In this document: positions 44,801 through 47,561 of the stretch, one piece after another
How the letters are laid out: each line of letters begins with the position of its first letter
How positions within the stretch are numbered: the first letter of the stretch is position 1
From: an uncultured Erysipelotrichaceae bacterium
GTDB lineage: Bacteria; Bacillota_I; Bacilli_A; RF39; UBA660
Length of the DNA: 47,561 bases
Direction of reading: 5' to 3'
NCBI GenBank assembly: GCA_902783985.1
Contig: CACZTI010000061.1
Coordinates: 1 to 47,561 of the forward strand
The notes under the pieces: model-generated
Database searches by the model: none
What the model was told of the DNA's origin: nothing
What the model saw: the letters and a program-made list of their open reading frames with translations, nothing else
Made by a program: the position numbers and the translations under genes

Positions 44801-45799
44801 CTAAAATAATCTATCTTGATATTCTATCTCTAAATGTTCATATGCTTTTTTAGTAACTACTCTTCCTCTTGCGGTTCTTTTAATATAACCATTTTGAAGT
44901 AAGTATGGTTCATAAACATCTTCAATAGTACTTATCTCTTCTCCAATACTAGACGCAATTGTTTCAATACCAACTGGTCCACCATTAAATTTTTCAATTA
45001 TAGCACGCAAGAATTGATGATCAGTTTCATCTAATCCCACTTTATCTACTTTAAGTCTTGATAATGCTTTATCCGTTATCTCATTATTTATTTCTTCTAA
45101 TCCCTCAACAAGAGCAAAATCACGTACTCTTTTAAATAAACGATTAGCAATTCTTGGAGTTCCACGACTTCTTTTGGCAAGTGATATTGCAGCATCATGT
45201 GATATTGGCATATCAAGAACCCTACTAGTTCTTTCAATAATCATTCTAAGTTCATCTTCATCATAATATTTAAGTTTACAAGTAATACCAAATCGATCTC
45301 TTAATGGACTTGTCAAGTCACCTGCTCTTGTAGTAGCACCAACCAAAGTAAATGGTGGTAAATCAATTTTTATACTTCTTGTATTATTATCACTTCCAAT
45401 AACAATATCCAATGTAAAATCTTCCATTGCTGGATAAAGTATTTCTTCAATGAATCTTGGCATTCTGTGTATTTCATCAATAAATAAGACATCACCTGGT
45501 TCAAGAGTTGAAAGTATTGCAGCTAAGTCACCTGATTTTTCAATAGCAGGACCACTAGCAGTTTTTAAATTACTTCCAAGTTCATTAGCAATAATATTAG
45601 CAAGGGTTGTTTTACCAAGTCCTGGTGGACCATATAAAAGTACATGATCAAGTGGTTCATTTCTCATTTTAGCAGCTTCAATAAATACTTTAATATTTTC
45701 TTTTACTTCACTCTGACCAATATATTCATCAAGACTTTCTGGTCTAATACTACTATCCTTATCTTCATTTAATTCTTTTGCATCAAGTACATCTTCCAT
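44801..45799 (-). CDS. ruvB: Holliday junction branch-migration helicase RuvB
   Basis: [28 protein letters not shown] and VLFIDEIHR. Confidence 0.97.
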
Positions 45800-45881
45800 T
45801 AAAACACCATCCTTCTATTTCTATCTAATTGTATCATAATAATATTTTTTATTTATTTTATTTGACAATATTTTGACAAAT

Positions 45882-46355
45882 TTAATTATTTATTTCTTTC
45901 ATCATTTGTTTTTTTATTGAATCTATATCTGTAAAAAATAAATTAATACCCCTAGTTTTTAATTTCATTAAATATTCAAAATAATATAAAATTTCTTCTT
46001 TTATTGATTCAACAACTTTAGCAGGTTTACCATCACTTGTTAAGTGAATATGATCAATATATTTTTCTAATGTTGGAAAAGCATTTTGTAATAAAATAAC
46101 TGATTTTTCACCTAAAATTTCTCTAATTAGTATTGTATCACATCTACCAAATTTCTTCATTTTATTATCAACTATTTTTTTATACTTATCAACTTTACTA
46201 CTTAATGGAATAAACCACAAAATATCTCCTTCTTTTATTGTAAAATATGTGGGTCTCTTTTTACCCCTTTCATGATTAGTCATTAAATTTTTATCATTTA
46301 CAATATCAAAAAATTCATCTTTTATATGATATAAGTATCCTGTTTGAATTTCCAT
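45882..46355 (-). CDS. Type III toxin-antitoxin toxin, ToxN/AbiQ-family endoribonuclease
   Basis: Collinear with ToxN/AbiQ as I recall them: YLYHIKDEFFDIV, KKRPTYF, WFIPLSSKVDKY, LLQNAFPT. ATG 46355 follows AGGAGAT. The ORF opens at 46376. It is preceded by an RNA repeat array and a terminator. Confidence 0.75.
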   Translation of the reverse strand: MEIQTGYLYHIKDEFFDIVNDKNLMTNHERGKKRPTYFTIKEGDILWFIPLSSKVDKYKKIVDNKMKKFGRCDTILIREILGEKSVILLQNAFPTLEKYIDHIHLTSDGKPAKVVESIKEEILYYFEYLMKLKTRGINLFFTDIDSIKKQMMKEINN

Positions 46356-46384
46356 AAAACCATCTCCTATTGACATTCTAACAC

Positions 46385-46421
46385 AAAATAAAAGAAAACT
46401 CTATATAATATAAGAGTTTTC
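46385..46421 (-). terminator. Attenuating terminator between the antitoxin repeats and the toxin gene
   Basis: The minus strand reads GAAAACTCT-10 nt-AGAGTTTTC followed by TTTTATTTT. Confidence 0.8.
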
Positions 46422-46424
46422 TAC

Positions 46425-46530
46425 ATTTTCACCCGGAATAATTTATTACTCACACCATCCGGAAGTGAGAAACATTGTCGACCGGAATAATTTATTACTC
46501 GCAAGCCATCCGGGAGCGAGAAACATTTAC
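46425..46530 (-). ncRNA. Type III antitoxin RNA: 2.1 tandem copies of a 49-nt repeat
   Basis: The minus strand reads AATGTTTCTCGCTCCCGGATGGCTTGCGAGTAATAAATTATTCCGGTCGAC, then AATGTTTCTCACTTCCGGATGGTGTGAGTAATAAATTATTCCGGGTGAA, then AATGT. The internal stem CTCGC/GCGAG versus CTCAC/GTGAG shows one compensatory pair change. Confidence 0.7.
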
Positions 46531-46555
46531 ACACAAATTTCTTTGATGCATAATT

Positions 46556-46584
46556 AATATACTACAAATTTACGAAAATGTCAA
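46556..46584 (-). promoter_or_regulatory. Sigma-A promoter of the type III TA module
   Basis: Minus strand: TTGACA (46584-46579), 17-nt spacer, TATATT (46561-46556). Confidence 0.7.
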
Positions 46585-46620
46585 ATAGTATATCACTATT
46601 ATTATATGTCATTTTATTAA

Positions 46621-47178
46621 TTATTTACCAACTAATAATCTTAAAGCTTCTTTTATTTGTTCTTCAATTGATTTTTCTTTATCTACTCTTGGAATAACAA
46701 CTTTAATTTCCTTATCTTTATAACCAAGTCCTTTTAAAGCTTCCAATAGTTCATTATCAGTATTTTCTTCTTCTACAACACCTGAAATAACAAGTTTACC
46801 TTTTAAATCAAGTATCATTTGTCTTGCTAATTTATCTCCAATTTTAGGAAATTTCTTTAAATATAAAATATTTTCACGATTAATAGCATCAGCTATCCCA
46901 TTAATACTTCCCATTGCTATAATAGGAAGAGCCATCTTAGGACCTAGTCCCTTAACATCAATTAATTTTAAAAACAATTCTTTCTCTTCATATTTTTTAA
47001 ATCCATATAAACTATGTTCATCTTCTCTAATATAATCATAGATATAAACAGTATACTCTTTATTTTCTTCAAATGAATATGGATTAGGTGTATATATTAA
47101 ATATCCAATTCCATTATTATCTAAAGTAATACTATTACTATTTATTTCCACAACCATACCTTTAATATAACTATACAT
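46621..47178 (-). CDS. ruvA: Holliday junction DNA-binding protein RuvA
   Basis: MYSYIKGMVVEI..ITLDNNGIGYLIY OB fold, HhH region LIDVKGLGPKMALPI, and a C-terminal domain III. Confidence 0.93.
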   Translation of the reverse strand: MYSYIKGMVVEINSNSITLDNNGIGYLIYTPNPYSFEENKEYTVYIYDYIREDEHSLYGFKKYEEKELFLKLIDVKGLGPKMALPIIAMGSINGIADAINRENILYLKKFPKIGDKLARQMILDLKGKLVISGVVEEENTDNELLEALKGLGYKDKEIKVVIPRVDKEKSIEEQIKEALRLLVGK

Positions 47179-47245: not shown

Positions 47246-47264
47246 AAAAGATAAAAAATCTTTT
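47246..47264 (-). terminator. Terminator of the right-end gene
   Basis: The minus strand reads AAAAGAT-TTTTT-ATCTTTT followed by a T run. Confidence 0.55.
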
Positions 47265-47279
47265 TGATTTCTTATCTTT

Positions 47280-47561
47280 CTATCCAACAATGTATGGATT
47301 TGTTGGTGTTCCATCTCCAGAAGTTATTGCTGTTCCAGGAACGACCGAAACGACAGAACGCACGCCCGAGCTAGCGCTAGCCACACCACCGCTGACGCTA
47401 AGGTTGCCACCATACATATTGAACTCGTAAGCAGTGCCATTACTAAAGCTACGAGGCGAGCCAGACCAATAACCTGAATTATTATTTAAATAGAATGTAC
47501 TATTCGATGAACTATATTTTCCTCCGGCATATGCTATTTCATCTGCTGTTATAAATCCTAC
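47280..47561 (-). CDS. 3' fragment (93 codons plus TAG; 5' end outside the window) of a paralogue of the left-end gene
   Basis: The reverse complement of 47454-47561 matches 1-108 at 107 of 108 positions. Translation: ...YWSGSPRSFSNGTAYEFNMYGGNLSVSGGVASASSGVRSVVSVVPGTAITSGDGTPTNPYIVG*. Confidence 0.6.
   Translation of the reverse strand, partial: VGFITADEIAYAGGKYSSSNSTFYLNNNSGYWSGSPRSFSNGTAYEFNMYGGNLSVSGGVASASSGVRSVVSVVPGTAITSGDGTPTNPYIVG
47367..47453 (-). other. Hypervariable cassette (DGR variable-region-like), 29 codons, followed by the conserved 21-mer at 47346-47366
   Basis: Same position as 109-198 in the paralogue. About 55% G+C. The differences are confined to codon positions 1 and 2 in the first 22 aligned codons. 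Confidence 0.5.

Follow-up and report, generated by a model that had tools for sequence, protein, structure and literature searches.

The minus strand of contig CACZTI010000061.1, from an uncultured Erysipelotrichaceae bacterium (assembly GCA_902783985.1), very probably carries at positions 45882-46584 an intact type III toxin-antitoxin locus of the CptIN family. The whole stretch analysed, positions 1 to 47,561 of the contig, is referred to below as the window; its G+C content is about 23%. A complete module is present, consisting of promoter, repeat array, terminator and toxin. Read 5' to 3' from 46584 to 45882, the parts stand in the order promoter, hairpin leader, two repeat units followed by AAUGU, terminator, the sequence AGGAG and the toxin open reading frame (ORF). 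The family and its mechanism are already known, and only certain local details of this locus are unusual. In characterized systems, the toxin CptN processes the repeat transcript to single units with 2',3'-cyclic phosphate ends; each unit stays bound as a pseudoknot, in a closed ring of two RNAs and two proteins whose active sites are hidden (PMC4627078; PMC5086642). One unit suffices for antitoxicity and the antitoxins are strictly cognate (PMC4627078; PMC5086642).

The toxin and its family

The predicted toxin matched the NCBIfam equivalog model for CptIN (NF047359) over model positions 1-150 of 150, with 152.3 bits against a cut-off of 90 (E 8e-45). In a phmmer search of the PDB, CptN of E. 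rectale (4RMO) was found at E 3e-16, and with a profile built from 60 homologues the same entry was found at E 2e-44; this search gave no other credible match and no ToxN or AbiQ chain at E values up to 1. The homology to E. rectale CptN (PDB 4RMO; Rao et al. 2015, PMC4627078) extends over the full length, with 35.5% identity and a shared Ser-Ser-Arg triad; the three validated CptN toxins are 35-44% identical to one another (PMC4627078). The ToxN_toxin family of Pfam (PF13958) gave 16.4 bits, which is under its gathering threshold of 25, and the AbiQ model of PADLOC was matched weakly (E 0.003). No named TenpN model was searched, and CptIN was the only credible NCBIfam match at E up to 1.

Modelling with AlphaFold2 from an alignment of 40 close homologues gave a pLDDT of 54, which is unusable, and a more diverse alignment raised this value to 92.6. 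When the AlphaFold2 model was searched with Foldseek, 4RMO_A was returned first, with a TM score of 0.85 and a root-mean-square deviation of 2.2 Å; the next matches were AbiQ (TM 0.77), ToxN of B. thuringiensis (0.70) and MazF-type proteins (about 0.48). A first-pass annotation of the window had called the module "ToxIN/CptIN-like" and had proposed to compare the ORF with PF13958 and with the CptN/TenpN families. Sequence model and fold both speak for the CptIN half of that label, while the ToxIN half is contradicted by the low score to PF13958. The motifs to which the annotation had drawn attention (KKRPTYF, WFIPLSSKVDKY and LLQNAFPT) are all present in the ORF. Its choice of a 157-residue reading frame, with a ribosome-binding site at the eighth codon of the longer ORF, was also borne out: AGGAG stands 8 nt before the ATG at 46355, and homologues start there. 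The ATG at 46376, which opens a 164-residue mechanical ORF, was rejected as a start, since it overlaps a -10-like element, has no ribosome-binding site and is not where homologues begin.

The homologue search returned 2765 homologous protein clusters. With one genome scanned per species, 262 loci were found, and 80 of them (L001-L080, with 63-81% identity) were retrieved; all of these come from metagenome-assembled genomes (MAGs) of uncultured gut "Bacilli" or "Tenericutes" from rabbit, deer, sheep, chicken, mouse and human. The counterparts of R30, S51 and S52 of E. rectale CptN in the window toxin are Arg34, Ser52 and Ser53; across 78 sequences of the clade Arg34 and Ser52 never vary, and Ser53 is kept in 76 of the 78. 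The alignment indicates that the catalytic Ser-Ser-Arg triad is conserved, the choice of R30 as the triad arginine being our reading of that alignment; the published structure work gives no residue numbers for the triad (PMC4627078).

The antitoxin array and its control elements

The first-pass annotation had described 2.1 tandem repeats of 49 nt. Two units and a partial third are indeed found, but the units measure 51 and 49 nt and differ by a 2-nt insertion or deletion (indel), apart from which 43 of 49 aligned positions are identical. The ungapped tandem score was 20, whereas none of 300 shuffles scored above 13, and a profile made from related units had exactly two matches in the 47.5-kb window (E 4e-19 and 2e-16). 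Tandem Repeats Finder (minimum score 30) did not report the array, which is explained by the 2-nt indel and by there being no more than two copies, and the same indel caused a repeat finder to list the array as separate pieces 49 and 51 nt apart. Nearly all of the 80 related loci have a period of 49-51 nt at 70-230 nt 5' of the toxin start, exactly two units being the commonest count (69 of 79 loci). The AAUGU which follows unit 2 is presumed, by analogy with E. rectale CptI (PMC4627078), to provide the 3' processing site.

Covariation shows that the units fold into an H-type pseudoknot with two stems, S1 and S2. The structure was examined in an alignment of 120 distinct units from 77 related loci, in which S1 occupies columns 11-15/29-33 and S2 columns 18-22/46-50. 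It was found that 94.3% of cells are paired; if the 3' partners are shifted by 1-3 columns, this value falls to 23-50%. Changes on both sides were seen in 8 of the 10 pseudoknot pairs, and S2 covaries at all five of its pairs; at pair 22-46, for example, 62 units have A-U and 58 have G-C, and no unit lacks the pair. None of 500 shuffles reached the observed covariation score. The two units of the window themselves differ in S1 by one compensatory change, from G-C to A-U. The A positions of the loop L2 (UAAUAAAUUAU) are invariant in the alignment, and the antitoxin unit is accordingly a pseudoknot with an A-rich L2.

For comparison, the E. rectale cptIN locus was recovered from human-gut metagenome contigs. 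It holds 2.1 perfect copies of a 45-nt unit which, when rotated to end in G-A, reads AAGUUUACCACUGACCGAUAUGUGGUAUAUAAAUGGUCGGGUUGA and reproduces all the residues named in the published work, namely G13 in L1, A27-G35 in L2, U30, A33, G44 and A45 (PMC4627078). The order of promoter, 2.1 repeats, terminator and toxin is shared with the window, as are the H-type pseudoknot, the short L1, the long A-rich L2 with a common AUAAAU, and an A-rich inter-unit junction with GA. In both RNAs the elements follow one another as 5' tail, S1, L1, S2, S1', L2, S2' and 3' tail. S1 and S2 have 5 base pairs and L1 has 2 nt in either case. The 5' tail measures 8 nt in the window and 6 nt in E. rectale, the junction between S2 and S1' 4 or 6 nt with an invariant UGG against about 3 nt, L2 11 nt (UAAUAAAUUAU) against 9 nt (AUAUAAAUG), and the 3' tail 4 nt against 5 nt. 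The greater length of the unit, 49-51 nt against 45 nt, is thus distributed over the 5' tail (about +2), the junction (+1 to +3) and L2 (+2). The E. rectale units are 100% identical to each other, unlike the two in the window, and their host belongs to the Lachnospiraceae and not to the low-GC gut Bacilli. On this comparison the 49-51-nt unit appears to be a slightly expanded CptI and not a different kind of RNA. The first-pass annotation had suspected a distinct subfamily from the length and sequence of the repeat, a suspicion which the shared pseudoknot layout does not sustain. The locus also agrees with the cptIN loci of an earlier survey in being chromosomal, in its occurrence in Firmicutes, and in having about two repeats, a toxin of about 150-160 residues and a terminator before the toxin (Blower et al. 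2012, PMC3401426).

Several observations weigh against this assignment. Among the residues by which E. rectale CptN specifies the scissile adenine (Asp81, Ser85 and Tyr104) only Ser85 is kept; Tyr104 is replaced by an invariant His, and the position of Asp81 is variable (G/N/D/E). The toxin of the window may therefore cut at another site and even be specific for another base, the set of three residues being a description of one member and not a definition of the family. The inter-unit junction is conserved as G-(A/U)-N-A-A-U-G, in which the AA varies little or not at all; however, column 54, which by distance corresponds to the scissile A45, is not invariant, whereas the AA 2-3 nt downstream is. 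The E. rectale RNA is cut at GA^A; distance from S2 would place the corresponding cut here at GA^(C/A)AAUG (column 54), and conservation would place it at the AA of AAUG (columns 56-57). The unit of 49-51 nt is longer than the 40-48 nt tabulated for 33 loci (PMC3401426), a range which is descriptive rather than defining. The pattern by which units were picked fixed the UGG and part of S1; since it left the 3' strand of S2 unconstrained, the covariation of S2 is not an artefact of selection. There was no credible Rfam match, either for the locus at permissive thresholds or for the whole window at gathering thresholds, and because no Rfam family matches, the RNA assignment is founded on our own alignment. 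Rows for rimP and AgrB at E 4-9 in the Rfam output were regarded as chance.

The near-consensus promoter proposed in the first-pass annotation was confirmed, with 11 of 12 consensus positions, as the top-scoring promoter-like site of the region. Among 77 related loci, 69 have the pattern TTGAC[A/T]-N16-18-TAnnnT 5' of the array. The promoter is associated with an inverted repeat which surrounds the -35 hexamer and whose 3' arm overlaps the -10. Of 68 related loci, 60 have at least six pairs enclosing the -35; the arm sequences vary by locus, and the mean z against shuffles is -1.9. This pattern speaks for a structure of the nucleic acid and not for an operator bound by a protein, and the hairpin could insulate the array against upstream read-through, here from ruvA. 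The predicted leader hairpin is visible at the equivalent place in the sequences of relatives. A terminator between array and toxin, which had been called strong, is present, but it is A/U-rich and hence moderate in strength. A hairpin with a U-run occupies this place in 77 of 77 related loci. In the window, it was missed by a generic terminator scan because its loop of 10 nt exceeds 8 nt, and was revealed by folding.

Directly 3' of the terminator U-tract stands an extended -10-like element. The pattern TGnTAnnnT was found within -42 to -17 before the ATG in 47 of 79 loci (composition-matched shuffles averaged 6.6 and never exceeded 14), most often at -28 to -30. Where the spacer is longer, about 90-100 nt, loci have instead a full pair resembling -35 and -10 elements (TTGACG or TTGCAA with a -10-like box). 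The spacer between terminator and start is 35-45 nt here, with the conserved -10-like motif, and about 17 nt in E. rectale. With the upstream promoter present and a clade-conserved -10-like motif after the terminator, a second transcription start is possible, which suggests that the toxin gene of the gut-Bacilli clade may have a promoter of its own, unlike the single-promoter layout described for type III operons in reviews (PMC5086642).

The adjacent units of this clade are also frequently non-identical. Among 77 adjacent pairs, S2 differs in 58 and S1 in 31, and only 17 have both stems the same. Pairing within a unit amounts to 4.8 of 5 pairs, against an average of 3.9-4.0 for cross-pairing between neighbouring units. 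Units 1 and 2 differ in a like manner across many loci, as in S2 with CCGGA/UCCGG against UCGGG/CCCGA. To judge from these alignments, units 1 and 2 look like long-maintained distinct isoforms and not like homogenised repeats; toxI and cptI repeats have been termed "nearly identical" in published descriptions (PMC12283969). It may tentatively be proposed, though we consider it doubtful, that the gut-Bacilli clade represents a regulatory variant of CptIN which combines a separate toxin promoter, two antitoxin isoforms kept apart by compensatory changes in the stems, and an antitoxin promoter inside a covarying hairpin. If this were true, the synthesis of toxin and antitoxin would be uncoupled, instead of being set by terminator read-through, the distinct isoforms could go into an asymmetric 2:2 complex or keep neighbouring units from mispairing, and the promoter hairpin could insulate or gate the antitoxin promoter. 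In the window, where the module splits ruvAB, transcription of ruvB may moreover have come to depend on the transcript of the toxin gene. The coordinates of all features are collected in Table 1.

Table 1. Features of the cptIN locus and its flanking genes, with positions in the window
Feature	Position	Strand	Basis or remark
ruvA	46621..47178	-	upstream flank, outside the module
Inverted repeat, arms 46595-46585 and 46565-46555, 11 pairs including two G-U	46555..46595	-	fold of the 58-nt promoter segment
Antitoxin promoter, TTGACA 46584-46579, 17 nt, TATATT 46561-46556	46556..46584	-	11/12 consensus positions
5' leader hairpin before unit 1 (predicted)	46527..46553	-	part of the minimum-free-energy fold; whole region z -3.9
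cptI unit 1, 51 nt; junction UGGCUU, A-rich loop UAAUAAAUUAU	46477..46527	-	tandem repeat, profile, covariation
Unit 1, S1: CUCGC with GCGAG	46520-46516 with 46502-46498	-	
Unit 1, S2: CCGGA with UCCGG	46513-46509 with 46486-46482	-	
cptI unit 2, 49 nt; junction UGGU	46428..46476	-	tandem repeat, profile, covariation
Unit 2, S1: CUCAC with GUGAG	46469-46465 with 46453-46449	-	
Unit 2, S2: CCGGA with UCCGG	46462-46458 with 46437-46433	-	
Third-unit start AAUGU	46423..46427	-	supplies the rest of the junction motif after unit 2
Intrinsic terminator, 10-bp stem, 10-nt loop, U-tract	46385..46422	-	dG -10.4 kcal/mol, z -4.0
Terminator stem AGAAAACUCU/AGAGUUUUCU, then UUUUAUUUU	46422-46413 with 46402-46393	-	
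Extended -10-like element TGTTAGAAT (TG 46383-46382, TAGAAT 46380-46375)	46375..46383	-	candidate separate toxin promoter
Ribosome-binding site AGGAG, 8 nt before ATG	46364..46368	-	read from sequence
cptN toxin gene, 157 aa and stop, predicted endoribonuclease	45882..46355	-	NF047359, 4RMO, fold match
ruvB	44801..45799	-	downstream flank, outside the module

The ruvA-ruvB site and the distribution of cptIN

The module is inserted between ruvA and ruvB. Adjacency to ruvA or ruvB was found in none of the 80 related loci, and contigs with an identical toxin keep the order ruvA-cptIN-ruvB. The states of the site were compared among close relatives falling in one RuvB cluster of 90% identity, a comparison which covers only five contig families. 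In one of them (L164) the site is empty, and the ruvA stop is followed after 10 nt by the ruvB start (GTG). The site is intact in the window and in two relatives (L161 and L162). In two others (L165 and L167) the toxin is frameshifted by an additional A in a run of five (A5 to A6) and reduced to 100 residues, and in a further two (L166 and L168) about 350 nt are deleted inside the toxin gene. Array and terminator are retained in every non-empty allele. From the site states and the absence of a ruv context among the related loci, it was concluded that cptIN is a lineage-specific insertion in the ruvAB operon. After the insertion some strains lost the toxin but kept the antitoxin, as would be expected of a costly toxin and a protective antitoxin.

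No hairpin or terminator is evident 3' of the cptN stop in the 82 nt before ruvB. On the minus strand, the gap between cptN and ruvB (45800-45883) contains a direct repeat, TTGTCAAA(N3)TTGTCAAA, and an extended -10-like TGATACAAT at 45836-45828; ruvB may be transcribed from its own promoter, jointly with cptN, or both. The 3' end of another gene lies 5' of ruvA (47264-47561, minus strand). The G+C content of this end is far above that of the rest of the window, and the C-terminus which it encodes is rich in Gly, Ser and Val (...GVRSVVSVVPGTAITSGDGTPTNPYIVG). Close relatives have a DnaB_2/DnaD-type gene there instead, which indicates that the flank 5' of ruvA has also been rearranged.

Tandem cptIN pairs on the same strand were observed in L016 (634, 1488), L038 (2127, 3001), L048 (3001, 5907), L071 (1361, 3001) and L078 (3001, 3871); the array at 3001 in L038 has four units and not two. 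Several MAGs carry cptIN copies on separate contigs. Two loci, L010 (upstream of 563) and L034 (upstream of 848), have a CptN homologue without a recognisable cptI array and without an Rfam match, and these may represent an orphan toxin or a different antitoxin. In L010 this region consists of a stretch of about 110 nt which is richer in G+C and looks structured, followed by a terminator and a TTGACG-type promoter. A 44-nt tandem repeat with GAUAUAGGUUUGAUAUUGAUUU-like units lies just 5' of the cptIN promoter in L007 (about 2670-2790, 330-211 nt 5' of the toxin start) and is missing in the near-identical L008.

Nine plasmids (H1-H9) encode distant CptN homologues with 28-40% identity; their hosts include Megamonas, Clostridium perfringens, Planococcus and Oscillibacter. 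In the 2012 survey cptIN was found on chromosomes only (PMC3401426). No relatives of the toxin were found in the phage genomes of the collection.

Mechanism, role and significance

Because of its family membership, fold, triad and RNA structure, the locus is expected to work by the mechanism of the family; processing, cleavage position, inhibition, stoichiometry and toxicity are here inferred by analogy. The strong promoter would give rise to a short RNA with two pseudoknot-forming units, ending at the intrinsic terminator, and the downstream gene to CptN, a sequence-specific endoribonuclease with a ToxN/Kid-like fold. By analogy with the E. rectale complex, CptN would cut the A-rich junctions (G-A-C/A-A-A-U-G) to release single units of about 49-51 nt. 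The bound unit, an H-type pseudoknot, would block the active site, probably in a closed ring of two proteins and two RNAs. If the supply of antitoxin fell or the RNA were degraded, free CptN would cleave cellular RNA and growth would stop.

Other explanations of the locus itself fare poorly. Membership in ToxIN or AbiQ rather than CptIN is refuted at the level of family assignment and deserves next to no credence. It draws on the weak Pfam ToxN and PADLOC AbiQ matches and on a fold resembling both toxins; indeed ToxIN (P. atrosepticum, B. thuringiensis) and AbiQ/antiQ (L. lactis), for which the abortive-infection phenotype is proven, are alike in architecture, principle and pseudoknot antitoxin, with a related fold (TM 0.70-0.77). 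However, both sequence and fold match CptN far better than any other toxin, the homologue profile reaches none of the ToxN or AbiQ chains at E up to 1, the Pfam score stays under its threshold, and neither toxin has a significant sequence match to that of the window. The RNA, too, has the layout of CptI and not that of ToxI, whose units of 34-36 nt form a triangular 3:3 complex. The more remote MazF/Kid toxins of type II systems are endoribonucleases with a distantly similar core fold, but they are much shorter and have a protein antitoxin and no repeat array. It is hardly credible, likewise, that the repeats are a cis-acting leader of the RNase gene, resembling an attenuator or riboswitch, and not an antitoxin acting in trans. 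The repeats do stand 5' of the ORF and end in a terminator, and the promoter-like element behind it could split array and toxin transcriptionally. Against this, tandemly duplicated pseudoknots joined by conserved A-rich junctions are the hallmark of type III antitoxins, no cis-regulatory family of Rfam matches, and the homologous E. rectale RNA is a proven inhibitor in trans of which a single unit is enough (PMC4627078). The inactivated toxins at the same site in close relatives, and the truncated CptN genes with intact arrays reported earlier (PMC3401426), raise the question whether the locus is a fossil which is neither toxic nor processed. This is very unlikely, since the ORF in the window is of full length, matches the family model from end to end and keeps all clade-invariant residues, S1 and S2 are fully paired in both units, and promoter, terminator and ribosome-binding site are intact.

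What an active CptIN module does for its host is a separate matter, and the phage defence suggested in the first-pass annotation is a possibility which should not be assumed. In abortive infection, a phage would lower or degrade CptI, upon which CptN would destroy RNA and the cell would die before phage release. ToxIN, AbiQ and TenpIN, which have a like architecture, act in this way (PMC3401426; PMC5086642); in addition, the family is abundant and patchy in gut MAGs, occurs in several or tandem copies and varies in presence at one site, as accessory defence genes often do. On the other hand, cptIN gave no protection against six coliphages (PMC3401426) or more than 200 coliphages (PMC4627078), all of this in E. 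coli only, no phage homologue of the toxin was found, and beside the module no known defence gene was identified within the window, where the two ORFs 3' of ruvB are without a Pfam match. A defensive role is consequently regarded as possible but rather doubtful. The module may instead serve chiefly to stabilise itself by addiction, loss of the short-lived RNA freeing the toxin, with no function in defence; this is a serious possibility, though short of probable. The E. rectale cptIN locus raised plasmid retention from about 50% to 100% (PMC4627078), and more distant homologues are carried on plasmids. The position inside a housekeeping operon and the empty, intact, frameshifted and deleted states, with the array always kept, are typical of toxin-antitoxin decay. 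A single-copy chromosomal site, however, offers little to stabilise, and the same site pattern fits a defence gene under fluctuating selection equally well.

The assignment of the locus to CptIN adds little by itself, as the family is established, a crystal structure is known and a curated NCBI model recognises the toxin. Its surroundings are more informative. The related loci make up a large CptIN clade of uncultured low-GC gut Bacilli which had not been characterised before, and its natural covariation supports the CptI pseudoknot outside the crystal. A single site with empty, intact, frameshifted and deleted alleles offers a compact case of toxin-antitoxin gain and decay in a housekeeping operon. 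The non-identical units, the candidate toxin promoter and the His at position 104 bear on how type III systems set the ratio of toxin to antitoxin. Finally, a CptIN system derived from a Firmicute is a reasonable candidate with which to address the question of phage defence in a Gram-positive host.

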